64,000 bases of DNA from an uncultured bacterium (GCA_902775595.1 CACYNF010000002.1:3390-67389), one strand, 5' to 3'. Positions 18,832 through 59,972 are shown, numbered from the stretch's first letter. Notes: a model not told the origin generated them from the sequence alone. A program made the numbers and translations.

Positions 18832-18895
18832 AAGGGCCGCGCCACCGCGCCCCACAATAATATATACAACTGCCGAAGCAAAATAGTGAGAATTA
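18832..18895. repeat. conserved about 60-bp intergenic element, copy 1 (second copy 35408-35465)
   Basis: cccacaataatatatacaac(t/c)gccgaagcaaaat(a/t)gtgagaatta(t/a)ttttca present at both sites in same orientation, about 93% identical. Confidence 0.6.
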
Positions 18896-18954
18896 TTTTT
18901 CACTTTTTTGCGTCGGAGTCCGAAAGAGCGAAACCCCTGGCGGCCGCGATGTCA

Positions 18955-21243
18955 TCATCTCCTCATCCGCCTTAGCTCCGAGAGCTTCACCTTCGGCTTC
19001 GCCGCCGTCCTCGGCCTGCCGTCCGCCATCGTCCCCGCGAGGACGCAGCCGGACATCGAAGCCGCGACCGCCGCTCCGACGACGCAGTCCCACCAGTGGT
19101 TGTCGTGCGCGTCCGGGCGCATCTTCCACTCGTCGACGCGACGCCCGCGGCCCTCGGTCTTGATGCGGTACTCGGCGGTCAGATGCTCCGCGAAGAGGAG
19201 GTGGTCGTCCGCACTCCGCCCCCAGAGCGTCAGCGCCCCACGGTCGCCGGTCGCGGTGAGAAGACGAGTCGCAACGAACGACTTCCAGAAGTTGGTGTCG
19301 TAGACGACGTGCCTCACCGCCCGTTTGCCGCGCACGTTCGGCATCCGCCAGTTCATCCCCACGCGGTCGCCGACCGCCTTCTTGTACTCGCCCATCGGCT
19401 TCGAGCTTGCGCCGATGTAGCGGCCGTGCGACGGCGTGAGGACGGACGCGAACTCCGACTCGCGGCAGAACTGGTACACGGTGTCGGTGGACTGCCCCCA
19501 GTTCGCGTCAACAAGGCAACGCTCGATCCTCATCGCCGCGCCGTCGTCGCGGAAGTATTCGCGTCCGAGGATCTCTCCCGTCAGCTTCTTGAGGCCTTCG
19601 GAAAGACACCCTTCGAGTCCGTGTCGTGGAAACTTCATCTGCAGCGTCACGTTCGCGTCGGCGAGCGTGAAGAAGCGCCGGTTCTGGTCGGGCCACTCGC
19701 CGTAGTCGATGACGCGTCCCGTGAAGTCGTCGTCCCACGCGACGACGCAGTAGAAGAGCATTGTCTTCTGGACGTCGATGAACGCCGTCAGGTGCGTCGC
19801 CGAGACGGGGACGCCGAGCCGCGAGTGTCCGTTTATGCGCGACGAGACTCCGTCGAGCGTCAGCTGCTCCTCGGTGCCCAGGTCCTCGGCGAGCGGCTCG
19901 TTCTGGTACTCGGCCCAGAACGCCGCCTCGTCGGTGAGCTTCAGGTTCATCGCGTGCTGCACGGCGGAGAGCTCGTCGTGGTTGAACCGGGCGGGCCACG
20001 CCACGACCGCGCCCTCGTCCATCTCCGCCCTGTGCCGGCGGTAGAACTCGGTCGCCTTAAGGAACGTCCCCTTCTCGCGCAGCTCGTCGGCGCGCAGGTC
20101 GGCGTACTTGTTCCAGAGCGTCTCGTTCTTGGGGAACCTGTACACCATGCGGCAGCGCTCCCCGTTCCACTCCGGGTGCTTCGAGCGGTCGAGCATCTGC
20201 TCGGCCATGTCGCCGGGGCGGATCACCGTGCAGGGCATCACGCCCGCGATCTTCCTGCCCGGCCCCGCGAGGCCGAGGACGTCGCCCGCGAGGACGCGGA
20301 CGCGCTTCCTCGTCTGCTCGGACGATCCCGCCGACTCGCTCGTCTGCGGGTCGTCGACGATGACGAACTCGGGGCGGATCGTGCGCCCGTCGGGGCGCTT
20401 GTACTTCATGCCGCGAATGCGCCCAGTTATGCCGGCGACGCGGACGATTGCGCCGCTGGACGCCGCGCCCGCGATTGTCGGAAGCACGATCTCGCTCGCC
20501 GTCCACACGATGCGCGTCCTCTCGCCCTTGTAGAGCTGGCCCGCGCAGCGGTTCGCGATCCCCTCGAGGCGGGCTATCGGATAGACCATCTCCGGGAAGT
20601 CCTCGGCGAGATGCTCGTTGACCTCAAGCTCGGTCTTGATGGAGTCGAGCATCTCGAGGGCCGCGCCCTCGCTCGCACCGATGATGACGATGAACTCGCG
20701 GTGTCCGTAGGCCATCGCCCAGATAGCGGCGGTCTCCGTGAGCGAGGACTTGCCCGAGCCGCGAGCCATCGCGAGAGCGAAGAGCCCGCCTTCGAGGACG
20801 GCCTTCTGCAGTTTCTCGATTGCGCGAAGGTGGTCGTCCGACCATTCGAGGTTGTACACTTCCGGGAAGTAGGTCTCGCAGAACTTCCTGAAGTCGAAGC
20901 GGCACGACTCCTTCCTCTCCGGGTCGACCACTGCGGGAAGCTCGCCGATGTCGCGCCCCGCGAGGGAGAGGTCGGCCTGCCGCTGCGCAGCCGCCTCGCG
21001 GTGCGCTTCGTATGCGTTCGGGTTCGCCTCCGCCGTCTGCGGGGGCGTGTTCCGTTTGTCTATGAGCCACGCGGCGTAGCGGTAGAAGCTGAGGCACCGC
21101 GAGTCCTCCGTCGAGGCGATGCGGTAGCCCGCCTCCGAGAAGTGGCGGTAGACCATCGCGGCGGTGATGACCGTACCAAGCTCCGTGGAGTTGAGGAACC
21201 GCACCATCTCCACGGGCTTCATCTTTTTAACGTTGACCGTCAT
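18955..21243 (-). CDS. terminase large subunit, GpA family (762 aa)
   Basis: Walker A LAMARGSGKSSLTE, GpA-like size and architecture. Confidence 0.85.
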   Translation of the reverse strand: MTVNVKKMKPVEMVRFLNSTELGTVITAAMVYRHFSEAGYRIASTEDSRCLSFYRYAAWLIDKRNTPPQTAEANPNAYEAHREAAAQRQADLSLAGRDIGELPAVVDPERKESCRFDFRKFCETYFPEVYNLEWSDDHLRAIEKLQKAVLEGGLFALAMARGSGKSSLTETAAIWAMAYGHREFIVIIGASEGAALEMLDSIKTELEVNEHLAEDFPEMVYPIARLEGIANRCAGQLYKGERTRIVWTASEIVLPTIAGAASSGAIVRVAGITGRIRGMKYKRPDGRTIRPEFVIVDDPQTSESAGSSEQTRKRVRVLAGDVLGLAGPGRKIAGVMPCTVIRPGDMAEQMLDRSKHPEWNGERCRMVYRFPKNETLWNKYADLRADELREKGTFLKATEFYRRHRAEMDEGAVVAWPARFNHDELSAVQHAMNLKLTDEAAFWAEYQNEPLAEDLGTEEQLTLDGVSSRINGHSRLGVPVSATHLTAFIDVQKTMLFYCVVAWDDDFTGRVIDYGEWPDQNRRFFTLADANVTLQMKFPRHGLEGCLSEGLKKLTGEILGREYFRDDGAAMRIERCLVDANWGQSTDTVYQFCRESEFASVLTPSHGRYIGASSKPMGEYKKAVGDRVGMNWRMPNVRGKRAVRHVVYDTNFWKSFVATRLLTATGDRGALTLWGRSADDHLLFAEHLTAEYRIKTEGRGRRVDEWKMRPDAHDNHWWDCVVGAAVAASMSGCVLAGTMADGRPRTAAKPKVKLSELRRMRR

Positions 21244-21427
21244 CGCCCATCTCCTTTGCGACCCACGCGATGTACTTCAGGATGTCGACCGTCCCGTCCG
21301 CGTTGACGGGAGCGCCGGCGGCGACGTCGGACTCGAGCCGCTCCAGCGTGAGCGTCCTCGACCCCGCCCTTCGCATGGCGGTCACGAAGTTCTCCTTCGA
21401 GATGTGTTCGCGGTTCTGTTCGGGCAT
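21227..21427 (-). CDS. small protein upstream of terminase (possible small terminase/DNA-binding), 66 aa
   Basis: Overlaps TerL start; position only. Confidence 0.3.
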   Translation of the reverse strand: MPEQNREHISKENFVTAMRRAGSRTLTLERLESDVAAGAPVNADGTVDILKYIAWVAKEMGDDGQR

Positions 21428-21562
21428 TTCTTGCCTCCTGGAAAAAATAGTTGAAATAGTCGCCGGTACCCCGTTGACTATTCCTGGAATAAGAGCGAAT
21501 ATGTGCGCCGTTCCGAGTTCATGGTGGACGAGGACTCAAGACAAGGAAAGGACACAGCACAT

Positions 21563-22081
21563 ATGAGCAGCAATGCAGGAATCCGCGCGGGCGACCGCGC
21601 GTTCGTGAAGGTGGGGCGCAACCTCGTCGAGGTTCGCGTGAACGGCAGGGCCGAGGGCGGATGGAACGTCACCTCCCGCACCGGCAAGGCCATGACGGCA
21701 AAGACGCTCCTGACCGCCGACGGCGAGACGCTCGCCGCGCACGAGGCGGAAACCGACGCCCCCGCGAAGGCCGCGCCCGCAAAGGCAAAGGCTGCAGGCG
21801 CGAAGGCCAAGGCCGCGCCCGCCGCCCCCTCGCCGAAGGCGGTGCCCCAGAAGGGACTCTCGCTCCTCAACGCGGCGGCCGCCGTGCTGGAGCGATCCGA
21901 CGCTCCGATGGCGGTCAAGGGGATGATCGAGGAGGCGAAGGCGCAGGGGCTCTGGACGCCGCGCGGCGGCAAGACGCCCGAGCAGACCCTCTACTCCGCG
22001 ATCATCCGCGAGATACGCGACAAGGGTTCCGAATCCCGCTTCCGCAAGGACGGGCGCGGGCTCTTCGCGTTCGCGAAGTAG
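21563..22081 (+). CDS. DNA-binding protein: N-terminal small domain + AKA-rich histone-H1-like tract + C-terminal HARE-HTH-like domain (172 aa)
   Basis: AKAAPAKAKAAGAKAKAAPAAP tract; C-terminal ...GKTPEQTLYSAIIREIRDKGSESRFRKDGRGLFAFAK; only plus-strand gene in phage; TTGACT-17-GAATAT promoter-like sequence upstream. Confidence 0.55.
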   Translation: MSSNAGIRAGDRAFVKVGRNLVEVRVNGRAEGGWNVTSRTGKAMTAKTLLTADGETLAAHEAETDAPAKAAPAKAKAAGAKAKAAPAAPSPKAVPQKGLSLLNAAAAVLERSDAPMAVKGMIEEAKAQGLWTPRGGKTPEQTLYSAIIREIRDKGSESRFRKDGRGLFAFAK

Positions 22082-22083
22082 CG

Positions 22084-23109
22084 TCAGGCCTCGTATCCGA
22101 ACAGCCCGTTCCTGCACATCTCTGCGTAGACGGGCCGATCGAGGCCGAGGCCCTCTATCACGCGGCTCGCCGGATTCGACTCCGTGTACGTCTCCACGAC
22201 GCGGTTCTCCCCGTCGAGGAGCGTCACGCGGATGTCGCGGCTTCCGATGCAGCACGATATCATGCACTGCATGGACGGAAGCCCGTACCTCTTCATCCCC
22301 TCCAGCGCCTTGCGGCGCGCATACACGTTGAGCGTGACGTCCGCCTTCGTCGGGTCCTTCCCCCACGGGCAGCCGCCGCCGATGCGACTGTTGCCGCCGT
22401 AGAAGTCCACGACGAGCTTCCTGCCCGTCGTTCCGCAGTCGGCGACGGAACCGTGCGCGACGTAGCGCCCGGTGCCGTTCACGACGACGGCGCATTCGCT
22501 TCCGACGATTGACTTAGCCGCCTCGACGACCGACTTCTCGTCGTCGCCGGGCGCAAGCGGAATCGCTACGACGCACTCGACGGGCTTTCCGTCTACGAGC
22601 GTCACCTGCGTCTTAACGTCCAGCCCGCCGCACACTCCCGCTATCGACTGCCCGAGCTTCCGGGCAAGCCAGTAGTCCTTGGGCATGTAGCCGTATTCCG
22701 GCTCGTCCACCGCGTAGCCGAACGCCAGCCCCTGGTCTCCCCAACTGTCGCGGTCGACTCCCTGGGAGATGTCGCCCGACTGACGGGAGATATGTGTTTC
22801 CACCTCGACCTCCTCGGAGCAGATCGCGTTCGAGTCGCCAAAACGCTCCTGGTACTCGTCGGTGTAGCCGATCTTGTCGATTGCCTCCCGCGCGAAGTCG
22901 GCGATGTCCTCCTCGCCGTATGGGGCGCTGGAGGTAATCTCGCCCGATATCGTGCAGTAGCGTTCCTTGAGCTGCACCTCCAGCGCGACCCTGGAGCGGC
23001 TGTCGGCCTCGATGTACTTGTCGAGGATGTACGAGGCGATGAAGTCGCACGCCCTGTCGGGATGCCCGACCGTGCAGTATTCCGATGTCTGGATTTTCAT
23101 TGGTTTCAT
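22084..23109 (-). CDS. metK: S-adenosylmethionine synthetase (MetK-like), 341 aa
   Basis: GHPD, GDQGLAFGYA, DCGTTGRKLVVDFYGG, GGGCPWGKDPTKAD align to MetK signature segments; internal start MKPMKIQ. Confidence 0.8.
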   Translation of the reverse strand: MKPMKIQTSEYCTVGHPDRACDFIASYILDKYIEADSRSRVALEVQLKERYCTISGEITSSAPYGEEDIADFAREAIDKIGYTDEYQERFGDSNAICSEEVEVETHISRQSGDISQGVDRDSWGDQGLAFGYAVDEPEYGYMPKDYWLARKLGQSIAGVCGGLDVKTQVTLVDGKPVECVVAIPLAPGDDEKSVVEAAKSIVGSECAVVVNGTGRYVAHGSVADCGTTGRKLVVDFYGGNSRIGGGCPWGKDPTKADVTLNVYARRKALEGMKRYGLPSMQCMISCCIGSRDIRVTLLDGENRVVETYTESNPASRVIEGLGLDRPVYAEMCRNGLFGYEA

Positions 23110-23399
23110 TGCTGGTTTTCTCCTTGTGTCGCGCCCCGGAAGGAGGCGGCTTTTGTCAGATTTTTCGATAGTAGTCCGCAGGATCGTGTGCGAGTGCACA
23201 CAGGATCCGACAGAGCCCGCAGTATAGTTGTCTCCGGAGCTCCGCCGCGTCCGGCGAATACGGCGCTATACGGCGGAATACCGCCGATTCTCGCCGCATA
23301 TCCCGCCTAATCCCGTGTGTTTCCATACTGGTCTACAGTCTCTGGACGACTATAGTTCACACGTAGACACGCGCTCTACACGCCACGGAAGCACACAAT

Positions 23400-24041
23400 T
23401 CAACTGTAGATTGTTTCGCAGATGGCCACGATATGGCGGCACAGCTCGGCGGGCAGTTTCGCCCGGACGGCCTTGCCTTTCAGTCCCTGCGTGCCAGTCC
23501 TCGACCCGCGAGGCGCGGCGTCGTGGCAGGGAGCGCCCCGCTTGCACGGCGGGCGGAACTGCGGATAGGGGTGGTTCGTGAAGATGTCCGTCGGCTTCTG
23601 CCGCCTCTCGCCGTACTGGCAGTACGTCACCGTGTGGCGGCTACCGCCGGTGTCCTTGAGGAGACCCAGTATGAACGGCATCTTCCGCAGCATCCCGACC
23701 GGGTTCTCGACGAACCACACCTTCGGCTTCAGCTGGCGGATGAGGTCGCATACATGGGCGTTGACCGCGTCGCACCTTGCGGCGTATTCCGTCTTCGGAT
23801 TCGTTCCGTCTCGGTGCCGCGAGATGCACATGACCGAGTACGTCGTGCAGTCGGGGCTTGCCCAGATGACGTCGGGATGTCCGAACCGAGCGACGATTTC
23901 GTCGGCGGTCAGCTTCCCTATGTCGGCGTTCCAGTCGGGCTTAAGCGCCTCGCTCCAGTCCACGGTAAGCGTCCTGTGCCCGCGCTTCCTGAACGCCGAC
24001 GACAGGACGCCCGTCCCGGAGAAGAGCTCAAGCACCCTCAT
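23400..24041 (-). CDS. short C5-cytosine methyltransferase-like protein (213 aa, no obvious target-recognition domain)
   Basis: LELFSGTG (motif I), ASPDCTTYS (PC motif), VWFVENPVGML (ENV motif). Confidence 0.55.
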   Translation of the reverse strand: MRVLELFSGTGVLSSAFRKRGHRTLTVDWSEALKPDWNADIGKLTADEIVARFGHPDVIWASPDCTTYSVMCISRHRDGTNPKTEYAARCDAVNAHVCDLIRQLKPKVWFVENPVGMLRKMPFILGLLKDTGGSRHTVTYCQYGERRQKPTDIFTNHPYPQFRPPCKRGAPCHDAAPRGSRTGTQGLKGKAVRAKLPAELCRHIVAICETIYS

Positions 24042-25287
24042 GTGTGCTTTCCTCCGCTTCGGGCGCCGTCGACGTGTCGGATGACGTCTCGCCGGACTTT
24101 GGCGTAAGCTTCTGCCAGTCGCAGCCCTCGCCGTGGACGAACTCCGCCCACCTGCGGCGGATCACGTCGCAGTACTTGGGGTCGAGTTCGACGCAGCGGC
24201 ACACGCGCCCCGTCCTCTCGCAGGCGATCAGGGTCGAGCCGCTGCCGCCGAACGTGTCGAGGACAACGTCGCCTCGCTTCGAGGAGTTGCCGATCAGGTA
24301 GCACAGCATGTCGACCGGCTTCATCGTCGGGTGGACGTCGTTCTTCTTCGGCTTGTCGTACTCCATGACCGTCGTCTGCGAGCGGTCGGAGTACCAGCTG
24401 TGCGCCTCCCCCTCCTTCCACCCGTAGAGGCACGGTTCATGTATCCAATGGTAGTCCTGACGTCCGAGGACGAGCGACTGCTTCTTCCAGATGAGGCACT
24501 GGCGGACGCGGAGCCCCACGTCGAAGCACGCGCCACGGAAGTTGTACCCTTCCGAGTCGGCGTGGAAGATGTAGAACGAGGCCCCCGGCTTCATGCGCTT
24601 CTCGGCGCAGCCGAACGCGGCGCGCAGAAACTCGCGGAACTTCGTGTCCTCCATCGAGTCGTTCTGGATCGACTGTCCGTCCGAGCCGTGGTAGTCCACG
24701 TTGTACGGAGGGTCCGTTAGCCAGAGGTCCGCCTCGCCGTCGCCGCACACTTTCGCGACGTCGTTTGGCTGGGTGGAGTCGCCGCAGACGAGGAGGTGGT
24801 TGCCGAGCCGGTACACCTCGCCCGGCGTCGAGACGGGGATCTCCGGCGTCTCGGGGACGGCGTCCGGCTCGGTCTCGCCGTGCGTACCCGCCTCGCCGCC
24901 GAGGAGGTCGTCCAGCTCGTCGTCGCCAAAAGCGAGCAGCGAAAGGTCGAACCCCGCCTCCTGCAAAGCGGACAGCTCGACCTTCAGCTTGTCCTCGTCC
25001 CACTCGGCGATCTCCGCGATCTTGTTGTCCGCGATCCTGAGCGCCTGCTCCTGCTCCGGCGTGAGGTCCGTCGCGATGATGCACGGCATCGTCTCCCAGC
25101 CGAGCTTCTTCACCGCGAGAAGCCGCGTGTGTCCCTCGATGATGACCTTGTCCTTGTTGAGGACGGCGGGGTTCCTGAAGCCGAGCTTCTCGATTATGTT
25201 CGCGAGCTGCTCGACCGCTCCCTCGTTGATCCTGGGGTTGTTCTCGTATGGAACGATCTCCGACACGGGGACGTTCACGATTTTCAT
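24028..25287 (-). CDS. ParB-like N-terminal domain fused to N6-adenine/N4-cytosine DNA methyltransferase (419 aa)
   Basis: N-terminal VPVSEIVPYENNPR ParB-type box; TDPPYN catalytic motif; C-terminal DTFGGSGST. Confidence 0.75.
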   Translation of the reverse strand: MKIVNVPVSEIVPYENNPRINEGAVEQLANIIEKLGFRNPAVLNKDKVIIEGHTRLLAVKKLGWETMPCIIATDLTPEQEQALRIADNKIAEIAEWDEDKLKVELSALQEAGFDLSLLAFGDDELDDLLGGEAGTHGETEPDAVPETPEIPVSTPGEVYRLGNHLLVCGDSTQPNDVAKVCGDGEADLWLTDPPYNVDYHGSDGQSIQNDSMEDTKFREFLRAAFGCAEKRMKPGASFYIFHADSEGYNFRGACFDVGLRVRQCLIWKKQSLVLGRQDYHWIHEPCLYGWKEGEAHSWYSDRSQTTVMEYDKPKKNDVHPTMKPVDMLCYLIGNSSKRGDVVLDTFGGSGSTLIACERTGRVCRCVELDPKYCDVIRRRWAEFVHGEGCDWQKLTPKSGETSSDTSTAPEAEESTHEGA

Positions 25288-25303
25288 CCTGCTCGTTTCC
25301 ATC

Positions 25304-27193
25304 TCAATTCTCCTCTGTGTGTTTCATGTCGTAGTTCTGGATTCGCTGGCATATCCAGCGGGCGCAGTTGACCGCCCATCCGTTTCCGAGCGCCTTGTAC
25401 CTCGGCGTGTCGGGGCAGTCCTCCGCGCTCTTCCCGCGATACGGGATCTTCGTGTATCCGTCCGGGAGTCCCTGGAGCCTTTCGCATTCGAGCGGCGTCA
25501 GCCGCCGGACGATGTAGTCAATGGCGACGGCGAGGAGGTTGTCGCCCATGTCGGAGCGGAGCGTCGACGCCAGCTCGGACATGAATCTGTGCAACGCCCC
25601 TTCGCGCCTCGCTATCCCCGGCTCGAAAGAGACCGCGCCGGGACCCTTGGCGACCACCGTCGGCGCGCACTCCTCCTCGACAGTGAAGCCGAACTGCGCG
25701 TTCCTCCCCTGGTTGAAGGACGCGCGGTCGAGCCCGATTGCCACGGCGTGCGGATCGGTCCCGTGCGCCGCGAGAATCGTAGGGGACGCGCCGCTCGTGT
25801 CGGTACCGGCCCCCGTCTTTCTCGCGCCCATGTCGAACACGCCGACGACCTCCTCGACGACCGCCGTTCCGCCCTGGTGCTTCACGGGTGCGGAATCGAC
25901 AGTCGTCAATGTAGGAGCGCACTCGACCTCGCGGCATCCGCTCTTCGGGTTCTTCGACTTCATCGCGTTCGACCCCATTGAGTCGATTGCGTATGCGACC
26001 GCGTGCTGGTCGCGCGCTGTCAGCGTATAGGACGCGCCTTTCTCCGAGACGCCGAACCCAGCGCCGCCCTTCCGGACGGGCTTGTCGGCGTTCGTCGGCT
26101 TGTTCTTGTCCATGTCGATTGCGACTACGGCGTCGGTCGGCACGACGACGAGCGGGTTGTTGTTCGCCGCCTGCGCGTTGTGGGTAGCGCCCATAGTCGG
26201 GGCGACATCGACCTGCACGGTCCTCGCGTCCGTCTGGTGGTTCTCGAAGCATACGGCGTTGTGGTAGCCGGGCGACGATCCGTTGACGAGCGCCCCGCTC
26301 ACCTCGGGGCTCGCAGTCTTGACGCCGCCCGGCTCGTAGGGGTCGAAGCCGGACGGCTGCATGACGAACACCCCCGACCTGTCGGCCTGCCCCGTGAGGC
26401 GCTTCGTCAGGTCGGTGGCGTTCAGCGTCGGCATCACGTCTCCGCCGTTTGCGTTCGTCGGAACCGCGCGATCTGCGCCAGCAGAGCCGCCTTGAGGCGG
26501 ACGGGTAAATCCTTGCCCCGTGATGCGGCGCGGCGCAGTATCCCCGCGCACGCCTTGAGGCTCAAACAGTATTTCCGCAGGTGCTCGCCAACCGTCTCCA
26601 GTATGTCCGACAGTCCGCATACCGACGAGCCAAACTCTCCTTCTGCGCTGCGGAACCGCTCTGGGCAGCCCGTCCACTCGCACGTACTGAGCGTCCAGAG
26701 TCCGGTAGGCAAGAGAATACCCGCATTCCCCAATCGAGCGGACGAAGTGCGCGAAGTCGCGCCCTCCGTTGCTGGTGAGAACTCCCGGCACGTTCTCCCA
26801 AAGTACCCATCGAGGTTGTAGCTCACGACAAAGTCGCGCAAAGTGGAAGGCAAGGGAGCTGCGGGTGCCGCTTCCCTCCGCCATGCCTTTCCTCTTCCCC
26901 GCGACCGACACGTCCTGGCACGGCGTGCCGCCGGCGAGGACGCCGAGACGCCCGGCAAGTTCAATGACATCTGTTCCATTCGTTATCCTCCATTTCTCGT
27001 CGCCGACCATCTCGGCTGTGATCTTCGTCATGTCCCCGAGGTTCGGAACCTCGGGGTATCTGTGCGCCAGAAGCGAACACGGGAACGGCTCGATCTCCGA
27101 AAAGAAGACGGGCCTCCATCCTCCGAGCGGCGTCACCGCCGCGCTCATGCACTCTATCCCGCTGCACACCGTCGCGTATGTAAGTTCCTTCAC
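25304..27193 (-). CDS. DNA (cytosine-5)-methyltransferase with large variable region (629 aa)
   Basis: ATVCSGIECMSAA, GGTPCQDVSVAG, WENVPGV, C-terminal ALGNGWAV; GTG start preceded by AAGGAG and overlapping upstream stop (GTGA). Confidence 0.8.
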   Translation of the reverse strand: MKELTYATVCSGIECMSAAVTPLGGWRPVFFSEIEPFPCSLLAHRYPEVPNLGDMTKITAEMVGDEKWRITNGTDVIELAGRLGVLAGGTPCQDVSVAGKRKGMAEGSGTRSSLAFHFARLCRELQPRWVLWENVPGVLTSNGGRDFAHFVRSIGECGYSLAYRTLDAQYVRVDGLPRAVPQRRRRVWLVGMRTVGHTGDGWRAPAEILFEPQGVRGDTAPRRITGQGFTRPPQGGSAGADRAVPTNANGGDVMPTLNATDLTKRLTGQADRSGVFVMQPSGFDPYEPGGVKTASPEVSGALVNGSSPGYHNAVCFENHQTDARTVQVDVAPTMGATHNAQAANNNPLVVVPTDAVVAIDMDKNKPTNADKPVRKGGAGFGVSEKGASYTLTARDQHAVAYAIDSMGSNAMKSKNPKSGCREVECAPTLTTVDSAPVKHQGGTAVVEEVVGVFDMGARKTGAGTDTSGASPTILAAHGTDPHAVAIGLDRASFNQGRNAQFGFTVEEECAPTVVAKGPGAVSFEPGIARREGALHRFMSELASTLRSDMGDNLLAVAIDYIVRRLTPLECERLQGLPDGYTKIPYRGKSAEDCPDTPRYKALGNGWAVNCARWICQRIQNYDMKHTEEN

Positions 27194-27807
27194 GATTTCT
27201 CCTTCCGTTTTTCCATGTACCGTTTCGCGGCGATCTTGCCTTCGAGGATTCCCATCCTCGGCCTCCGGCTGCGGCTTGGCCAGGGGATGTCCTTGTATGT
27301 CCCGCCCCGGCGTATCCAGTCGACCACTGCGTTCGACAGCCCCAGCATCCTGGCTATCCGGTAGGCGGCGAATCCGTCCCATAGAAGCTCCTTGACCTCT
27401 GCCGCGAGTTCGTCGCTTATCGTCCTCCTCGTCGGGTGCGGATGCCGTGCGTTCAGGACGATCTGCGCCCCCGTGATAAGTCCCGTCCTGTAGGCATGGC
27501 GGACGTTGTCGAGGTGCGACACCCATTCGAGGTTCGCGTAGTGGTTGTTGAGCTTGTTGCCGTCCTTGTGGTTCACCTCCACCTTGCCCACGCCAGTCGG
27601 CTTTTCGCAGAAGCACTCGGCTACGATGCGGTGGACCGCCTCTGGCCGTCCGTTTATGCCGACCCTGTAGTAGCCGCCGCAGCGGTGTCTGCCAAGATGC
27701 GGCTTCAGCAGCCTGTATCCTTCCCGGTTTTTGTAGTGCATGCAGAACACCATCCCGTCCTCCGTCACGAGGTAGCGACCGGCATAGATTTTCGCCCGTT
27801 TTCGCAT
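27190..27807 (-). CDS. HNH homing endonuclease (205 aa)
   Basis: NHKDGNKLNNHYANLEWVSHLDN HNH motif. Confidence 0.7.
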   Translation of the reverse strand: MRKRAKIYAGRYLVTEDGMVFCMHYKNREGYRLLKPHLGRHRCGGYYRVGINGRPEAVHRIVAECFCEKPTGVGKVEVNHKDGNKLNNHYANLEWVSHLDNVRHAYRTGLITGAQIVLNARHPHPTRRTISDELAAEVKELLWDGFAAYRIARMLGLSNAVVDWIRRGGTYKDIPWPSRSRRPRMGILEGKIAAKRYMEKRKEKS

Positions 27808-27995: not shown

Positions 27996-28025
27996 TTGAC
28001 TTGTCGCGCTCCGCTATGGCATAAT
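27996..28025 (+). promoter_or_regulatory. sigma70-like promoter on plus strand firing into the iteron/origin region
   Basis: TTGACT (27996-28001), 18-nt spacer, CATAAT (28020-25). Confidence 0.35.
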
Positions 28026-28099
28026 GTGACGCGTCGGCCACGCCGGGGTATTTTGGGGTTCCTTTCCCCAAGGTTTTCGTCCCCCGTCGCGGCCGGCGC

Positions 28100-28415
28100 T
28101 TTCATTTCGCGGATTTGCCGTTTTGCCGATTTGCCGTTTTGCGGCCGCCGTATGCAGCGGCTCGGATCGGATTCCCGTTTTGCGGGTTTTTTACACAGGG
28201 TATATTTATATACCCTGTAAAAACGGCAAAACGGGGAATCCCGACCGCTGCCGGGACAGGCAGACGGACGGTTTTGCCGTTTTGCGGGGAGAGGCCGCAA
28301 ATCGGCAAAACGACGGATTTCTATCTCAACCCGCATTTTCCGCGATTTGCGGGCCGACCGCAGAACTCCGCGCGCTCGTTTTGCGGGCCGCCCCGCAAAA
28401 CGGCAAAACGATGAA
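28100..28415. repeat. iteron array with central AT-rich dyad: candidate origin of replication
   Basis: At least 8 copies of TTTGCCGTTTTGC-like motif in both orientations (28112-28143 tandem, 28174-86, 28219-35, 28271-89, 28295-316, 28343-56, 28377-410); perfect 11-bp inverted repeat ACAGGGTATAT-TT-ATATACCCTGT at 28195-28218 inside an about 73-bp imperfect dyad. Confidence 0.55.
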
Positions 28416-28416
28416 A

Positions 28417-30501
28417 TCATGATTCCTCCTTCTGCTCGCTCCGCGAGCCGCGAAACACAAGCTTCACCGGGCCGTCGCCGAAGGGCGAGCCCTCGCCCCT
28501 TCTGCACATGACGTAGCCGTTCGCAAGCGCCTCGTCGAACACGCATCTCGCCTTTGTCCGCGATAGGTCAAAGGTCTTCTGTATCTTCAGGACGAAGCTC
28601 GTCTTCGGCTCCGGCTTACCCTCGTCCACAAGATCCGCGACGCGGGTCGCAAGCTCGTCGATCTCAAGGACTGCATCCGCGCCGTGCTTCGGCATCTTCT
28701 GCTCCGCCTTGCCAGCCAAGTCCTCCGGGCTGCGGTTGTAGTCGGGCACCATGAGCGGAAACGCCTTCTGCAGCACAATCGGCTCCTGGCGCGGGAACGA
28801 GCGGACGACCGCCTCCAGTACGAGGTAGCCGTCGTCCTTGTGTTCGCGGAGGATGAGGTGCGTGTCGGCGGCGCGCGACTGCGAGCCCGCGCCAGCGCCC
28901 ACGTCCGTTATCGACTTCTGCGACTGGTTTCCCTTGGACGTGTGGTGGATGAGGACGAACGAACACCCCACCTGCTTGGCGAAGGTGTCGATCAGGTTGT
29001 AGATGCCCGCTATCGAGCCGTTGTCGTTCTCGTCCGTGTCCTTCGGGAGGGCGCGGTAGAACGCGTCAATGACGATCATCCTGTACCCCGCCTCCCTGAA
29101 CTTCGGAAGCCACGCGGCGAGGTCTGCTATCGACTTCCACTTGCCGCGCAAGTTCCACACGTCGATCATGTCGTCCACGTTGGGAAGCGATGGGTTGACC
29201 TTCCGCATCGCCTCGACGACGAGCGGGATGCGGTTCGCGGACGTCTCCTCGTGAAGCTCGTTGTCTATGAGAAGCACCTTCCCCGGTGCGCATGTGTGTC
29301 CGAACCAGTCAGTCCCGGAGGCGACGCAGATCGCAAGCTGCGTCACCAGCCACGACTTGCCGGTCTTCGGCGCGGCGATGATGTTCATCGTCTCGCCGAT
29401 CCTGAGGAAGCCGTCGATGAGGACGGGGCGCATCTCCGGGAATCGCCTCTTGAGCGTCCCCAGCGGGATAGGCCCCTCCTCCGGCTGCGGCGACACACAT
29501 TGACCGGGGGCCGATGTAGGCTTCAGGCTGAACGTCACGCCCAGGGTCGGCTCCTTCGCTCTGCCGTAGCCAAGTGTGTGCAAAGCCGAGGCCGCCGCAG
29601 TGAAGTCGCCGCCATGACGCAGCGTCGCGTAGACCGCGAACGGGCTGTACTTGACGTTCGGCTCGAAGGGAGCGGCGTTCGACGAAAACACATAGAACGA
29701 GCCGTCCTTGTATGTCGCGGACATTCCGTTCCTCGGGTCCTTGCCGGGACGCGTCCACTGCTCGTTGCCGTCGGCCTTGAGGCCGCAGAACTGCCAGCCA
29801 GCGTCGGCGAGGAGCGGATGGATGTCGCCACGGGCGTTGAAGTCGTCCCCCGGCGGCAGTTCCCAGGCGTCCTTGCCGCCCGTCGGGGCGAAATCCGCGC
29901 CACGTTGCCCCGTGTCGCCTCCGGCGGGGGCAGGCGGGCAGTTTGCCGCAGGAAGCTCGTCGAGCGAACGTGCGGCGTCCACGAGGGCTTGTCGCGCAAC
30001 GGCGGTGAGGACGGGCAGTTCGGCGAAGTCCCCCTGCTGGAGGACGTAGCCCTCCGTCGGGGCGCAGAGGAAAAGACCGCCCTCTCCCCGCGTTTCGATC
30101 AGCGTCTTCTGCTTCCCGTCGCGGATGCCGCGCGCCAGCTTCAGGTTGCCCTCCACCGGCTCCTCCGAGCGGTAGAACACATGGTAGCCGCCGGACGGCG
30201 TCTGCTCGATGACGAGCTTCGCGAGAAGCCCGGTGTCGACCTTCTCCATCCACGCGGCGAAAAGCTCTCCGTGCTGGTCGAAGTCCATGCACTCGAGGTT
30301 CCCGGAGACAGCCCCTGCAACCACACATATCGCGTCGTGCGGGTTCGAGAACCAGGCGCGTACCTCGACCTCAGTCGGAAGCCGCGACTGCCAGTTCTTC
30401 CACGACCCTATCGCGGGGTGCTTCCTCGCCTTCGTCGCGGGAAGGCACGAGAGGCCTGCCGCGAGATACGCCATCGCCGTCGCCACGGGTATTTGAGCCA
30501 T
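28417..30501 (-). CDS. bifunctional primase-polymerase (Prim-Pol N-terminal) fused to AAA_25/RepA-like helicase ATPase, C-terminal winged-helix-like (694 aa)
   Basis: N-terminal LAAGLSCLPATKARKHPAIGSWKNWQ Prim-Pol-like; Walker A APKTGKSW, VLLIDNE. Confidence 0.75.
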   Translation of the reverse strand: MAQIPVATAMAYLAAGLSCLPATKARKHPAIGSWKNWQSRLPTEVEVRAWFSNPHDAICVVAGAVSGNLECMDFDQHGELFAAWMEKVDTGLLAKLVIEQTPSGGYHVFYRSEEPVEGNLKLARGIRDGKQKTLIETRGEGGLFLCAPTEGYVLQQGDFAELPVLTAVARQALVDAARSLDELPAANCPPAPAGGDTGQRGADFAPTGGKDAWELPPGDDFNARGDIHPLLADAGWQFCGLKADGNEQWTRPGKDPRNGMSATYKDGSFYVFSSNAAPFEPNVKYSPFAVYATLRHGGDFTAAASALHTLGYGRAKEPTLGVTFSLKPTSAPGQCVSPQPEEGPIPLGTLKRRFPEMRPVLIDGFLRIGETMNIIAAPKTGKSWLVTQLAICVASGTDWFGHTCAPGKVLLIDNELHEETSANRIPLVVEAMRKVNPSLPNVDDMIDVWNLRGKWKSIADLAAWLPKFREAGYRMIVIDAFYRALPKDTDENDNGSIAGIYNLIDTFAKQVGCSFVLIHHTSKGNQSQKSITDVGAGAGSQSRAADTHLILREHKDDGYLVLEAVVRSFPRQEPIVLQKAFPLMVPDYNRSPEDLAGKAEQKMPKHGADAVLEIDELATRVADLVDEGKPEPKTSFVLKIQKTFDLSRTKARCVFDEALANGYVMCRRGEGSPFGDGPVKLVFRGSRSEQKEES

Positions 30502-30531
30502 GAGGCCTCCTTTCTTTTTTGTGTGGTTGCG

Positions 30532-30759
30532 TCAGCCGCTCGGCGAGCGGTAGCTGTTCAGCGCCTCGCTCCAGGCGTTATAGTGACCCGCGCCCATGCT
30601 GCGGGCGCAGAAGTACAGGGCCGCGAACAGCACGAGCGTGCCCGCCGCGAGGAGCGCGGCGTGCCGCGCAGCCCTGCACAGTTTCTCCCGCCAGCGGATC
30701 TGCCTGTCTACCCACGCCCAGTATTCGTCGTCAGAACGGAAGGTCGTCGAAGTCTTCAT
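30532..30759 (-). CDS. small membrane protein (about 75 aa)
   Basis: Hydrophobic segment LLAAGTLVLFAALYF; overlaps downstream helicase gene 3' end. Confidence 0.3.
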   Translation of the reverse strand: MKTSTTFRSDDEYWAWVDRQIRWREKLCRAARHAALLAAGTLVLFAALYFCARSMGAGHYNAWSEALNSYRSPSG

Positions 30760-32451
30760 ACGAATCCCCCTCTCCATGTGTGTTTTCGCCCGACTCCACC
30801 AGGGGGAAGTCCCCGAGTTCGCAGCCGGTTATCTCCGGGTACTTCTCGCCGGAGACGAAGCGGACGGTTATCTCCTTCACCTCGCGGAGCATCCCGGAGA
30901 AATCGCACTCGCACACCTCCTCCGCCGTGCGCGGCAGCGGGCAGTCGGGGTGCGCATGTTCCCGCCACCACTTCTCGAACTTCCGCCTTGCGTACCCCGT
31001 GTGTTCAGGGCACAGCCACTCGGAGTAGTGCGTGAGGTAGTCGACGTCGTACGTCACGCGCACCGTCTTCGGAGAGCCGGGCGGAGCGCCCCGCTTCTCC
31101 CAGACCTGGTAGATCGTGTGCATGACGGGGAACTTCTCCGTCGTCACCTCGCCGGACAGGATGCCGACCCGCGCGGCGGAGGCGTCGAGCGACTTCCTCT
31201 CGCCTCGCGGCCACTGGTAGCCGCACTCCGGGCAGAGCATGACCGGGAGGTTCACAATCGTCTGGCACTGCGGACACGCCTTCGCGAGCGGACCGCCCTC
31301 CCCCTTGCCGGGCTCCTTCACCTTGATCATGTCGATCGGACCGTGCCGCTCGATGTTCCTGCCGTAGTCGAGGACGAGGCACTCGGTCTTGCCAGTCTCG
31401 GGCGAAAGGCGGAATCCGCGCCCCACCATCTGCACCAGGAGCCCTGGGCTATTCGTCGGACGCAGAAGCGCAATCGTGTCCAGGCGCGGGATGTCCGTAC
31501 CCGTCGTGAGGACGGAGACGTTGCAGCAGTACTTGAGCGGCGGCTTCTCCGAGAAGAAGTCCTCCTTCACGGTCTCGCCGCGAAGACGTCTGATCGTCTC
31601 CTCGCGCTCGTCGGCCGGCGTGTCGCCCGTGACGATGGCGCACTCCTCGCCGGAGAGCTTCGTTATCGTCGACGCGACCTTCCTGCAGTGCGCCACGGAC
31701 GTGCAGAAGACGAGGCACGCCTGCCTCCCCTTCGTGAGCCTCACGATCTCGTCGCAGGCAGAGCTGACGAGCCTGTCCTCGCCCATGAGCTTCTCCACAT
31801 CCTCGGCGACGAACTCGCCCGCGCGGATGTGCAGGCCGTCCGTGTCGGGCGAGTGCTTCCCCGCCTTCGCGGTGATGTTCGAGATGTAGCCACGGTTGAT
31901 CAGCTCCTTGACGCCGATTTCGTAGCACACCTCGTTCAGGAGGTTCTCCGGCTTGCATATGAGCCCGCCCTGCGTCCTGTAGGGAGTCGCCGTCCAGCCT
32001 ATCAAGCGGACGCGGGGATTGACCCGCTTTGCCGCTTCGAGGAAGGTGCGGTAGCGACCCTCGCCGTCAGGCGGCACCATGTGCACCTCGTCGATCATGA
32101 CGAGGTCGAACGGCCTGAACGCCTCGATCTTGTTGTACACCGACTGGATTCCCGCGACGATGACCGGCGCGTCCGTCTCGCGGCTGTCGAGCCCGGCGGA
32201 GTACACGCCGACCTTCAGCTCGGGGCAGATGGAGCGGAGCTTCCCCGCGTTCTGCTCGACAAGCTCCTTTACGTGCGCGAGTATCATCACGCGCCCCTTC
32301 CAGAGCGTCACCGCGTCCTTCGCCACCTGCGCGATGCAGAGCGACTTGCCACCGGCGGTAGGAATGACCACGCAGGGGTTCGTCTCCTTCTCGCGGAGGT
32401 GCGCGTAGACGGAGTCAACCGCCTCCTGCTGGTAAGGGCGCAACGTGTACA
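30731..32451 (-). CDS. SF2 DEAD/DEAH-box helicase with C-terminal zinc-ribbon (573 aa)
   Basis: Motif I VIPTAGGKS, motif II MIDEVH, motif III GWTATP, CPQC...CPEC; internal start MYTLRPYQQEAV. Confidence 0.75.
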
Positions 32452-32777
32452 TGGACGAGGCCTCCTTCGATTGGGTCGAGCATCTCCATTTCGAGACGCC
32501 GGACGAGAGAGTCGTCCTCCAGGAGCCCCGCGTTGACGAGGGCGTCCTGGAGGGACTTGAGCAGATTGTCGAGATCCCGCCTCCGTCTGTCGGGCGGATA
32601 GCAGTCGAGCGCAAGGCGGACCTTCCCGGTGAACTTCGGATAAAGCCCCCCGAGTCGGCTCACGACCATGCGACGGTACTTTCGACCCTCGCGGCTGATG
32701 AGCACGCGGGGGCCGACGTGGCGGTAGTAGTTGTTGACCGACGGCGGCCAGGGGAGGTCGAACTCGGCGTCCCTCAC
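32415..32777 (-). CDS. rusA: RusA-family Holliday junction resolvase (about 120 aa)
   Basis: LPWPPSVNNYY..., RRDLDNLLKSLQDAL catalytic D-x-D-N; GTG start in GTGA overlap with upstream stop. Confidence 0.7.
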   Translation of the reverse strand: MRDAEFDLPWPPSVNNYYRHVGPRVLISREGRKYRRMVVSRLGGLYPKFTGKVRLALDCYPPDRRRRDLDNLLKSLQDALVNAGLLEDDSLVRRLEMEMLDPIEGGLVHVHVAPLPAGGG

Positions 32778-33223
32778 CTCGCCCACGGCGCGGCTCCCGA
32801 CGCCTGCGGCGGCTTCTGCGCGGGCTGCTGCGTCTGGGCGGCCTTCGCCTTGTACGCCTTTACGACGTTCTTCGTCGGGTCGTTCCTGTCGACGCCGACG
32901 GTGATGACGAGCGGGAGGTTGTGGAGCTGCACGGTGTCCTCGAGCTCTGTGACCCCGACCGCCTTGCAGAGGCTCGCAAGCTCCTCGCGCCCGATCTGCT
33001 GCGCCTTGGCGTTCTGGTTCTCGTAGTTGATCCACGCGAAGACCTTGCGCCCCTTGGCGGGACCGTCGGAGAGGATCTCGAACGTGAGGTTGATGCCCAT
33101 TCCGTTGCCGTTCTTGGTGGCCCTCGTCTCCGAGTCGGTCACGACCGCCTCGTAGGTGCCGGAGGGGATTGCGTCGCGGGAGGTCGTGTCGACCTCGGCC
33201 GCGTTGAACTTCAGCTGTGCCAT
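32774..33223 (-). CDS. DUF669-like phage protein (149 aa)
   Basis: MAQLKFNAAEV...GTYEAVVTDSE...GMGINLTFEIL pattern and position next to Sak4-like ATPase. Confidence 0.5.
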   Translation of the reverse strand: MAQLKFNAAEVDTTSRDAIPSGTYEAVVTDSETRATKNGNGMGINLTFEILSDGPAKGRKVFAWINYENQNAKAQQIGREELASLCKAVGVTELEDTVQLHNLPLVITVGVDRNDPTKNVVKAYKAKAAQTQQPAQKPPQASGAAPWAR

Positions 33224-33316
33224 AGTCTATGTGCCTTTCCTTTTTCGTTTGAGCATGAAAAAAGGGAACCAGCGCCACAAGGCGGGGGCTCCCCGTTTTC
33301 AAAGTTGCGTTTTGCG

Positions 33317-34066
33317 TTACTTCTTCGATCCAGCCTTCATGCCGTCCATGAAGGCCTGCCACGAGAGCGCCATCTCGCTCGGAAGCGAATAGCGGTTCTT
33401 CGCGTTGCAGGCGGGCGAGCCGTTCGTGCGGAGGATGCGCTCGCCGCCGTCCGCACCGACCGGCGCGGCCTTGCCGGTCGTGGAGTCCACGCGCATCCTG
33501 CGGGACGCGAACAGCACCGCGTCCGCCCACTCGCACACAAGCGAATTCGCGCTCTTGTGGAGTCGCGGCTGGTAGCGGTCGTATGCCGGATGCTCCGGGT
33601 CCTCGAACCGCTCGACCTTCGCGTGCGCGACAAGTATGACGGCCATTCGCTTCTTCGCGCGGATCTCGTTCAGGAGCTTCACGATCTCGCGCCAGTAGGT
33701 GAGCGCGTAGGTGTAACCCTTCCCGTAGCCGCCGTCGGCCTTCTCGATGGACTTCACGCCGTAGTCCGCGCAGACGCGGTCCCAGATGAGGCGCTCCAGC
33801 CAGTCGAGCGAGTCGACGCAGAGCGTCTGGAACTCGTGCTCGCCGTCGCGGATCGCCTTCAGCTGCTCGACGACCTCGGCGAACGAGGTGCAGAGCGGGA
33901 ACTTCGCGCAGTCGATCTCCGAGAGGCCGTCCTCGGTCTGCACGAAGATTGGCTTCGGCGCGGAAGCGGCAAACGTCGACTTGCCGACGCCCTCCGAGCC
34001 GTATATCATGATGCGGGGAGGCTGCTGCGCCTTTCCCGTCGTTATCGTTTCCAGCAGGTTACCCAT
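33317..34066 (-). CDS. Sak4-like RecA-fold ATPase (AAA_24 type), 249 aa
   Basis: IMIYGSEGVGKST Walker A; phage recombination module context. Confidence 0.7.
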   Translation of the reverse strand: MGNLLETITTGKAQQPPRIMIYGSEGVGKSTFAASAPKPIFVQTEDGLSEIDCAKFPLCTSFAEVVEQLKAIRDGEHEFQTLCVDSLDWLERLIWDRVCADYGVKSIEKADGGYGKGYTYALTYWREIVKLLNEIRAKKRMAVILVAHAKVERFEDPEHPAYDRYQPRLHKSANSLVCEWADAVLFASRRMRVDSTTGKAAPVGADGGERILRTNGSPACNAKNRYSLPSEMALSWQAFMDGMKAGSKK

Positions 34067-34081
34067 TTGGTTCTCCTTTCG

Positions 34082-34459
34082 TTACTTCAGTTCCCTCGCC
34101 CAGGAACGCCCTGGGGTTTCGCATGCCTTGCCGTGGGTGACGGTGATTCCGCCTTCGCCCCTGTGTTCGACCGTCCTGTGGGTCATGAACCTCAGCAGGC
34201 TCTCGCGGGTCACGCCGATTGCGCGGCAGCCGCCGCCGTAGACGCGGTCGAGGTATCCACGGTATATGTAGTGGCGCAGGGTACGCCGCTTGACCTTCAG
34301 GATTTCCATCGCGTCGCCGAACCTGACGTTGTGGACGATGTCGTCGTCCGATTCGGCCTTGCCGCGAAGTGCGGCTATCGCCCGCTCCAGCATGTCCTTC
34401 GTGACCTCGGGGTCCATCATGACCATGCTCCTGATCGCGTTTTCTGTTTCCGGCTTCAT
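34082..34459 (-). CDS. excisionase-family HTH (HTH_17-like) DNA-binding protein, copy A (125 aa)
   Basis: MEILKVKRRTLRHYIYRGYLDRVYGGGCRAIGV; near-identical paralogue at 59581-59967 on the opposite strand. Confidence 0.55.
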   Translation of the reverse strand: MKPETENAIRSMVMMDPEVTKDMLERAIAALRGKAESDDDIVHNVRFGDAMEILKVKRRTLRHYIYRGYLDRVYGGGCRAIGVTRESLLRFMTHRTVEHRGEGGITVTHGKACETPGRSWARELK

Positions 34460-34468
34460 GCGCTCTCC

Positions 34469-35290
34469 TCAAATATCGAGAATCCTCATGTCCTCGGTGC
34501 GCGTCGGCCATACGTTATCGCTGCGGCAGCTGCGGAGTTCCGCAATCGCGCGCTCGTTTTCGAGTGCGCAAGCCTGGAGGATGCCGTCGGTCAATTTCCA
34601 CACGCCGCAGCGCATCGGCTCGCGCTTCTCGATGGCGATCAAATAACAGTCCGCCTCAACAGCGCACTCGCTCGCGGTGCGCAAGACCTCGCGGTAGAAC
34701 GCCATCTGCTGCGGATAGCCGAACCGCCTCGCGTCGCCCTCGAAGTAGTCCAGGGTCTCGCAAGTCTTGAGGTCGCAGATGGTCGGGCGGCCGCCGTAGT
34801 CGGCGCGGAACCAGTCCATGCGGATCTGGCACGGTTCGCCGCAGTAGCGCGTGCGCACGGTCTGCTCGGCGATGCCGTCGTCGAGAAGCTCGCGGGCGAC
34901 GGGATGCGCCCAGACGCTTTCGCGGAGCTTCGACATGAACGCGAAGTCCGCCCCGCCCACGACTTCCTTTGACTGCGATGCGGCCCACTCCCTGTACGCC
35001 TTTGTGGTCTTCCCGAACGGCTCGCCCGTCTTGGGGTTGACGGGTCCGTCCGTGACGAGGAACTCCTCGTCGAACCTGGCGCGCCCCTCCAGGACGAGGA
35101 CATGCACCGCCCTTCCGACGGCGAGCGCGGTCGACTCGGTCGGCTCGATCTCCCCGTTGATCTTCTTGTGGTAGAGCCTCGGGGACTTCCTGAAGTCGCC
35201 GAGGAGGTGGCTCGACAGGATCTTTCCGTCCCGTGCCGCCTGGTGGTATTCGTCTGCGGGTACGTCCGCGAAGAACGACAGCTTGTTCAT
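34469..35290 (-). CDS. PD-(D/E)XK nuclease-family protein (phage exonuclease-like), 273 aa
   Basis: ICDLKTCETLDYF...GYPQQMAFY motifs; internal start MNKLSFF. Confidence 0.55.
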   Translation of the reverse strand: MNKLSFFADVPADEYHQAARDGKILSSHLLGDFRKSPRLYHKKINGEIEPTESTALAVGRAVHVLVLEGRARFDEEFLVTDGPVNPKTGEPFGKTTKAYREWAASQSKEVVGGADFAFMSKLRESVWAHPVARELLDDGIAEQTVRTRYCGEPCQIRMDWFRADYGGRPTICDLKTCETLDYFEGDARRFGYPQQMAFYREVLRTASECAVEADCYLIAIEKREPMRCGVWKLTDGILQACALENERAIAELRSCRSDNVWPTRTEDMRILDI

Positions 35291-35407
35291 TGGTGTTTCC
35301 TTTCTCTTGGGCGAAAACAGAAAACGGAGGCCGTGCCTTAATAATGGCGCAGCCTCCGTCCTCGTGTGCCGACTCCTTGCGGGGCCGATCCGCAAATGCG
35401 CGCCAGC

Positions 35408-35465
35408 CCCACAATAATATATACAACCGCCGAAGCAAAATTGTGAGAATTAATTTTCAAGAAAT
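35408..35465. repeat. conserved about 60-bp intergenic element, copy 2
   Basis: See copy 1 at 18832-18895. Confidence 0.6.
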
Positions 35466-59967: not shown

Positions 59968-59972
59968 ACAAT

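Follow-up and report, generated by a model that had tools for sequence, protein, structure and literature searches.

The stretch of DNA analyzed here (the window) comprises 64,000 nucleotides (nt) from an uncultured bacterium (GCA_902775595.1 CACYNF010000002.1:3390-67389). Our subject is a short AT-rich element that occurs twice in it, each time ahead of a block of phage genes, together with a neighboring gene predicted to encode a sigma factor of the extracytoplasmic function (ECF) type. The prophage part of the window extends from position 1 to ~41.5 kb, with essentially all of its genes on the minus strand. Copy A of the element lies downstream of the gene for a gpA-type large terminase (TerL; 18955–21243, minus strand) and upstream of that for a C5 cytosine methyltransferase (Dcm; 17650–18741, minus strand). 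On the 3′ side of Dcm come a small open reading frame (ORF; 17514–17726), for which gpW is an unconfirmed label given only by an earlier, sequence-only reading of the window, and then a lambda-type portal gene and structural genes. Copy B lies between the putative sigma factor gene (35450–36244, minus strand) and the gene for a DUF3799 PD-(D/E)XK nuclease (34469–35290, minus strand), which opens a recombination/replication block, where the nuclease is followed by an AAA_24 protein, a RusA fusion, a helicase, and a primase-polymerase. Since most relatives of TerL are from metagenome-assembled genomes of rumen Kiritimatiellia and Verrucomicrobiota, and one Kiritimatiellae contig encodes a 99% identical TerL and also carries copy A, we assign the host to the Planctomycetes–Verrucomicrobia–Chlamydiae (PVC) bacteria. 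No transfer RNA or transfer-messenger RNA genes were found.

Alignment of the two sites with their flanks defined a shared block of 54 nt, at an offset of 16557 nt, with three mismatches (94% identity). Copy A spans 18849–18902 (minus strand, reading TGAAAAATAATTCTCACTATTTTGCTTCGGCAGTTGTATATATTATTGTGGGGC) and sits in the 213-nt gap between the TerL stop at 18955 and the Dcm start at 18741, while copy B spans 35406–35459 (minus strand, reading TGAAAATTAATTCTCACAATTTTGCTTCGGCGGTTGTATATATTATTGTGGGGC) and overlaps the stop codon of the sigma factor gene, covering its last three codons (GAA AAT TAA), upstream of the nuclease start at 35290. On the plus strand, the mismatches (copy A/copy B, copy A numbering) are at 18871 (t/c), 18885 (a/t), and 18896 (t/a). 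Both copies are oriented in the sense of the minus-strand genes, share a GCTTCGGC motif, and are flanked on both sides by unrelated sequence. Few islands of the window (61.5% GC overall) fall below 35% GC, and the element is among them. Sub-patterns of 18, 22, and 24 nt each have exactly two sites in the window with up to three mismatches allowed and none in 100 dinucleotide shuffles, so that nothing similar is expected by chance, and copies A and B are also the only sites in the window for a profile hidden Markov model (HMM) of the wider motif. An exact 18-mer recurs in five other viral contigs (25–45% GC) without the rest of the element, as expected of chance matches between AT-rich sequences, and a blastn search of site A against annotated phages matched the Dcm coding part only. 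The sequence-only reading had described a conserved AT-rich element present twice, in the same orientation, with unrelated flanks and 5′ of minus-strand gene blocks, all of which is confirmed by the alignment, the shuffles, and the gene positions. Its interval for the second copy (35408–35465) is essentially right, while that for the first (18832–18895) starts ~17 nt and ends 7 nt too early.

Further copies, which that reading had proposed to look for in related phages, exist with a similar plan and position in dozens of Kiritimatiellia phages. Relatives were collected mainly through a scan for the nuclease and look-ups of exact proteins; protein-pattern scans for the sigma factor in viral and metagenome contigs gave few loci. 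The order sigma factor gene–element–DUF3799 nuclease gene is kept down to ~50% nuclease identity, with the element always a few to ~100 nt from the end of the sigma factor gene, and a second element is found in the TerL/Dcm interval. In the nearest phage (92–94% identity), both copies are unchanged, which makes that comparison uninformative. In more distant relatives, in which TerL, Dcm, the nuclease, and AAA_24 are 80–97% identical at the amino acid level, the intergenic DNA differs in sequence and keeps the same plan. This plan consists of an A-rich stretch, a box of 6–7 nt (TTCTCAC, TTCCCAC, TGTTAAAAC, TGTTCAAAA, TGCACA, GCGCAC, or TTTCAC), a spacer of ~17–19 nt, a (C/T)GTATA or GCATAT sequence, and, after 7–9 nt, a G-run. 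Matches to the motif profile are on the gene-sense strand only, in every locus.

For the TTCTCAC type, to which the window belongs, we collected 13 instances from 11 genomes, 12 of which could be compared in one alignment (A3). Two blocks, GAAAAtAA-TTCTCAC-TTTT upstream and G(T/C)ATAT(A/G)TTA(G/T)TG-GGG downstream, are invariant or nearly so and equally strongly conserved, whereas the ~14 nt between them are free to vary in sequence. The distance from TTCTCAC to xxATAT is nevertheless constant at 18–19 nt (n = 13). Two conserved blocks around a variable center of fixed length are the footprint of a bipartite promoter. In the window, the upstream block occupies 18880–18901 in copy A and 35437–35458 in copy B (both minus strand), each with an A-rich stretch, the TTCTCAC box (18886–18892 and 35443–35449, respectively), and a T-tract, and we propose that it corresponds to an UP-like element and a -35 region. 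The downstream block, GTATATATTATTGTGGGG, at 18850–18867 in copy A and 35407–35424 in copy B (both minus strand), would then contain the -10 (GTATAT or TGTATA), the discriminator, and the G-run. ECF promoters would be expected to start transcription 6–9 nt downstream of the -10; the G-run, 7–9 nt 3′ of it, is only suggestive of a start there, with start sites predicted at ~18850–18855 (copy A) and ~35407–35412 (copy B). In some related phages, promoter-like units of this kind also occur in tandem arrays of six, two, and three (L018:2328-2801, L019:4922-5067, and L179:2240-2470, respectively), which precede a Dcm or nuclease gene and whose units differ in their upstream box (TGCACA, TTTTCGC, TGTTCA, TTCTCAC, TTCCCAC).

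The element shows no sign of a conserved RNA structure. RNAalifold found no conserved pair in the 12 homologous elements, the sense strand of either copy folded no more stably than its shuffles (z of -0.77 and -0.81), and Rfam gave nothing in the whole window at the gathering threshold and only noise at both sites up to an E-value of 1. The sequence-only reading had noted a GCUUCGGC stem-loop, which is indeed present in both copies. This motif falls in the variable spacer, however, and is kept, as TTCGG, only in the closest subgroup of relatives; the GCTTCGGC sequence likewise falls in the spacer and is absent from most relatives. The fold and covariation analysis that had been suggested alongside this stem-loop lends no support to a conserved RNA structure.

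The gene at 35450–36244 has a 264-residue product (MSRSYRYNPDD...), which the sequence-only reading had taken for a sigma factor. By predicted fold, profile comparison, and NCBIfam matches within its subfamily, it is a divergent ECF-type sigma factor. Its AlphaFold2 model has two confidently predicted helical domains (residues ~56–146 and 181–250) joined by a disordered acidic linker, an architecture of sigma-2 and sigma-4 domains without regions 1.1 and 3. In a Foldseek search of the PDB, most matches of the model, and 41 of the top 43, were sigma factors, led by the ECF sigma factors Mycobacterium tuberculosis SigE, Escherichia coli sigmaE, SigK, and SigW, and isolated sigmaE region 2 aligned with a TM-score (TMt) of 0.57–0.59. 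The NCBIfam model TIGR02937 (sigma70-ECF) was matched by 10 of 15 aligned subfamily members (best E-value 1.4e-6). An iterated HMM connects the window protein with its positional counterparts in more distant phages, proteins that match Pfam Sigma70_r2 and Sigma70_r4_2 above threshold as well as NCBIfam sigma70-ECF. The Rhodopirellula/Verrucomicrobium sigma family TIGR02989 is matched by five of seven syntenic relatives. Their profile matches sigma-H and ECF SigE in the PDB, and hhalign aligns them with the window subfamily over 167 columns (91.7% probability, E-value 7.7e-7), placing the invariant E..DY.Q motif of the latter on the D..Q motif of region 2. No RinA or ArpU model of NCBIfam matched the protein, a direct profile search against PDB sequences reached only an E-value of ~1 (to ECF SigH/E and a LuxR-type regulator), a tblastn search of 50,697 phage records gave no match, and no gene for an anti-sigma factor was seen.

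Element and sigma factor vary together. The TTCTCAC box is paired with a predicted sigma-4 recognition helix DRFH(I/V)M(N/I)VTM in 10 of 10 cases, and the TTCCCAC box with LR(F/Y)HIM(E/G)(N/T)TM in three of three. More remote sigma factors are paired with other boxes (TGTTAAAAC, TGTTCAAAA, GCGCAC, TTTCAC, and GTGAAC), one of these types having a canonical ECF-like GTGAAC-N15-GCATATGTA. The nuclease and AAA_24 are 80–97% identical between phages, in contrast to the sigma factor encoded just upstream, which is only 29–42% identical or less, and because identity falls so sharply next to a gene conserved above 80%, the element marks a mosaic boundary. The two sites of a genome, after the sigma factor gene and after TerL, also evolve in concert. 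They are 94, 83, 87, and 85% identical to each other in four genomes, compared with mostly 72–79% between genomes within a box type (85% in one related phage pair), and the pair L010/L172 has the two blocks in common but not the spacer. For another type of element, a pattern scan of three other large phage contigs gave exactly two sites per contig, both on one strand.

We consider it likely that both copies serve the phage-encoded ECF-type sigma factor at 35450–36244 as its cognate -35/-10 promoters. This is the option that the sequence-only reading had listed first, and it is favored by the ECF-type neighbor with its fold, family, and conserved gene order, by the bipartite anatomy of the repeat with its fixed spacing and lack of conserved RNA structure, by the concerted evolution of the two sites, and by the co-variation of box and recognition helix. 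We propose that the sigma factor, whose gene comes last in the upstream and presumably early set of genes, would once made join the core RNA polymerase of the host. Of the two conserved blocks, the upstream one (A-rich stretch, TTCTCAC, and T-tract) would be recognized by its C-terminal sigma-4 helix-turn-helix and the downstream one (GTATAT...) by its sigma-2 domain, with transcription expected to begin at or just before the G-run and the RNAs often to start with a GC hairpin. Copy B would turn on the genes from the nuclease, by way of recombination and replication, as far as the terminase, and copy A would start, or restart, transcription into Dcm and onward into the portal and structural genes. 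Phage switches of this kind are known, and temperate phages of rumen Kiritimatiellia would be a new setting for one. The lysogeny end of such a phage can be seen in the relative L259 (49% sigma factor identity), whose segment L259:1873-6203 has an integrase, a divergent HTH_26 repressor, and then CTD10, MC7, and DUF2326 genes ahead of the sigma factor gene, and its repressor–early intergenic region contains a TGATATAAT motif that by eye resembles an extended -10.

Several points weigh against a cognate sigma factor–promoter pair. The distance from TTCTCAC to ATAT, at 20–21 nt, exceeds the 14–17 bp of published ECF promoters, which leaves the exact -35 hexamer uncertain, and the box has CAC where the ECF -35 usually has AAC. 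The window protein itself falls below the Pfam, PHROGs, and NCBIfam thresholds, and its Foldseek E-values are weak (best 6e-3). The co-variation of helix and box represents few independent evolutionary events, there is no copy of the element upstream of the sigma factor gene itself, unlike for many ECF sigma factors, and a strong terminator-like hairpin between copy B and its first gene is awkward for a simple promoter. Finally, the functional steps (core polymerase binding, the contacts between domains and blocks, the start site, and timing) are ones that we infer.

Among known systems, the closest parallels are ECF (group 4) sigma factors, such as Bacillus subtilis sigmaW, sigmaV, sigmaM, and sigmaX, which have the same sigma-2/sigma-4 layout. 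In their promoters, a conserved -35 runs into a T-tract (tgaAACnTTTt), the -10 is CGTA or CGTC, and spacers measure 14–17 bp (PMC5758882). As in these promoters, the element is bipartite, with a fixed spacer and close adherence to a consensus; a T-tract comes right after the -35 (TTCTCACTTTT here, compared with tgaAACnTTTt); and the -10 is CGTA-like, with CGTATA in relatives and GTATAT/TGTATA in the window. Where ECF promoters have an AAC core in the -35 and a CGT core in the -10, the window has CAC and TGTA/GTAT, relatives have CGTATA as the -10, and the distant L187 and L209 have a GTGAAC box. Unlike in typical ECF systems, the sigma factor here is phage-encoded rather than chromosomal, too diverged to pass curated sigma models, and accompanied by neither an anti-sigma gene nor an autoregulatory copy that we could see; CAC replaces AAC in the -35, and the distance from box to -10 is apparently longer.

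A phage precedent is gp36 of phiEco32, a sigma factor for middle and late promoters with AATGTA centered at -11.5 (PMC12276001). It is likewise a distant phage-encoded sigma homolog that redirects the host core polymerase, as we propose for the window sigma factor, and its promoter motif also contains TGTA (AATGTA, compared with TTGTATATA here). On the other hand, phiEco32 is a lytic coliphage whose gp36 requires the co-factor gp79, the same tblastn search revealed no homology between gp36 and the window sigma factor, and the element here has an extra, strongly conserved upstream block. Temperate phages of Gram-positive bacteria offer another comparison in the small late activators of the Ltr group (RinA, ArpU, LtrA-C), which bind 7-nt direct repeats upstream of terS, LtrA resembling sigma region 4 (PMC3753634). 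The window protein differs in being a full sigma-2 plus sigma-4 protein matched by neither a RinA nor an ArpU model, and in having two presumed targets, before the nuclease/replication and Dcm/portal blocks, rather than terS. No 7-nt direct repeats are present in the element.

In phage lambda, the Q-PR'(qut)-tR' arrangement places a regulator gene directly upstream of its target promoter, with a terminator after the promoter. The order at copy B, a regulator gene directly upstream of the presumed target promoter and then a terminator-like hairpin, is similar. The two sites here also resemble nutL/nutR and HK022 putL/putR in being two phage-type-specific cis sites per genome that co-vary with a regulator. 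However, the regulator here has a sigma fold rather than that of Q or N, and the sites have promoter anatomy without conserved RNA structure, with a terminator-like hairpin at site B only.

A host sigma factor, either the housekeeping one or a host ECF, could instead read the element as its promoter, the two copies being alike only through recent duplication or gene conversion. With its TATA-like hexamer and the A-rich stretch upstream, the AT-rich island does look like an UP element and a -10, PVC bacteria have many ECF sigma factors, including the TIGR02989 family matched by five of the seven syntenic relatives, and the spacer identity of the two window copies looks like recent conversion because relatives vary in the spacer. 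Yet neither copy contains a sigma-70 promoter by a consensus scan (TTGACA-N16-18-TATAAT with 9 or more of 12 positions matching), closer matches to TTGACA/TATAAT being visible by eye in other intergenic regions of these phages (for example, TTTACA-N17-TATACC in L171 and TGATATAAT in L259). The upstream box also changes along with the recognition helix of the phage sigma factor, and the gene for the latter is always immediately upstream. We therefore regard this explanation as unlikely. Quite unlikely, too, is that the host holoenzyme reads the -10 while the upstream block is an operator, either of a separate activator or repressor or of a sigma-like protein acting in the manner of RinA, ArpU, or Ltr. 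An operator had been another option of the sequence-only reading, and GAGAATTAATTTTC is near-palindromic, but other box types have neither a palindrome nor direct 7-nt repeats, the downstream block is conserved equally strongly, and the protein has both sigma-2 and sigma-4 domains, with nearly all of its fold matches being sigma factors and with sigma70-ECF, but no RinA or ArpU model, matched within its subfamily. An operator retains a small chance and explains less than a promoter does.

The remaining options of that reading concern RNA, with the element acting in read-through transcripts as a nut/put-like antitermination signal or as a processing site and letting polymerase pass the terminator at copy B. 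The nutL/nutR and putL/putR sites are paired cis sites of this sort, one pair per phage genome, and the presence here of two similar copies per genome is reminiscent of them. A strong terminator-like hairpin lies ~45 nt (core stem) 3′ of copy B, and the GCUUCGGC mini-hairpin is present in both copies, with GC..GC replaced by CC..GG in the close subgroup. Against this stand the lack of conserved pairs, the z-scores no better than shuffles, the absence of any Rfam match, and a pattern of conservation, two blocks with a variable center, that is the opposite of a stem-loop element. Moreover, there is no terminator 3′ of copy A, and several relatives have none at site B. The RNA options are hence not supported, and we hold them to be very improbable. 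The sharp mosaic boundary at copy B (29–42% identity for the sigma factor, 80–97% for the nuclease) would fit an element that serves mainly as a recombination linker, promoting exchange of gene blocks between related phages. A shared linker would need to be alike between phages, whereas the elements are alike within a phage and different between phages, and the fixed spacing, the strand bias, and the co-variation of helix and box would be left unexplained; this explanation is exceedingly improbable. Spacing, host assignment, and the evidence for a sigma factor led us to drop an archaeal BRE/TATA promoter, a promoter of a T7-like single-subunit polymerase, and a Bacteroidetes -33/-7 promoter, and a cos or pac site or a transposon end does not fit two direct copies that are at operon starts and co-vary with a sigma factor.

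The leaders of the two predicted transcripts differ. In each, a GC-rich hairpin starts at the G-run, that is, at the predicted 5′ end, at 35381–35410 for copy B (GGGGCUGG...CCGGCCCC) and at 18834–18853 for copy A (GGG.GCGC....GCGC.CCC), both on the minus strand. Of 29 instances, 17 have such a hairpin beginning at the G-run, and the mean z is only -0.9, which speaks for a tendency and weakens the idea of a universal part of the element. The leader at site B folds very strongly (z -4.7), into this 5′ hairpin and a 12-bp hairpin followed by UUUUCUGUUUUC, whereas that at site A does not (z +0.9) and contains no terminator. The 12-bp hairpin (35313–35367, minus strand), between copy B and the ribosome-binding site of the nuclease gene, has a GC stem GGAGGCUGCGCC/GGCACGGCCUCC followed by GUUUUCUGUUUUC and looks like an intrinsic terminator, with candidate roles in ending the early transcript, in partial attenuation, or in regulated read-through. 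It is present in L261, L262, and L267 and absent from L172, L268, and L269, and because several relatives lack it, we do not count it as part of the element, at which a scan for the terminator consensus found nothing. In the Dcm leader, a hairpin at 18770–18806 (minus strand) has a U-rich loop CUUUUGUUGUUUUUC that is kept in relatives with a changed stem (ATGCGG/CCGCAT in L009, L020, and L030; GGCGG/CCGCC in L018), a pattern which suggests a conserved RNA element in the 5′ untranslated region, upstream of the Dcm ribosome-binding site. Dcm is one of two C5 cytosine methyltransferases of the prophage, encoded at 17650–18741 directly behind copy A and, within a 770-residue protein, at 25304–27616 in the replication block.

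Several other features of the window were noted. At 41545–41600 (minus strand), upstream of a lipoprotein-like gene (40992–41516), two GTCAC-N5-GTGAC inverted repeats and a TTGAAA hexamer look like an operator-controlled housekeeping promoter heading the block that the sigma factor gene closes. A 40-nt stem-loop repeat of the GGCTGAAC-TGCG-TTCAGCC type is present in three copies (39663–39702, 40602–40641, and 40954–40993), two of them inside a 964-residue ORF (38030–40924) with high GC content at third codon positions and no match in Pfam or PHROGs. The replication region contains an AT-rich, near-perfect palindrome at 28183–28231 (TTTTTTACACAGGGTATAT..ATATACCCTGTAAAAA). At 2305–4788, at least six tandem repeats of 219 nt (73 residues) lie within an 827-residue minus-strand ORF, which probably encodes a tail fiber or surface protein with repeat domains. 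Finally, a 260-nt inverted repeat with 90% identity links 34078–34337 to 59709–59968. The small ORF at 34059–34511 (minus strand) has a paralog at 59581–59967 (plus strand), with a weak HTH_17 match, that adjoins a DUF2357/PDDEXK_7 gene and a very AT-rich gap (59177–59373), in what is possibly a second mobile element or a defense island.

To our knowledge, almost nothing is known of the transcription signals of Kiritimatiellia and other PVC bacteria or of their phages. The sigma factor–promoter pair proposed here comes with a specificity code that may be readable, where NV in the recognition helix goes with T in the box and EN or GT goes with C, and the locus supplies natural variants of the pair across rumen metagenomes. 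More unusual are the strict concerted evolution of two sites at a mosaic boundary and the tandem promoter arrays with different boxes. A tentative extension, which we think possible but doubtful, is that the sigma factor gene and its promoters form an exchangeable specificity cassette, with sigma types swapped at the mosaic boundary and both promoters re-matched by conversion. If this is true, the late/replication module could suit several sigma types or be activated in trans by co-resident or superinfecting relatives. The pair could also act as an orthogonal expression switch, and with it the middle and late operons of such prophages would be better annotated. More broadly, the locus offers a clean case of a regulator and its two cis sites evolving in concert at a phage mosaic boundary.

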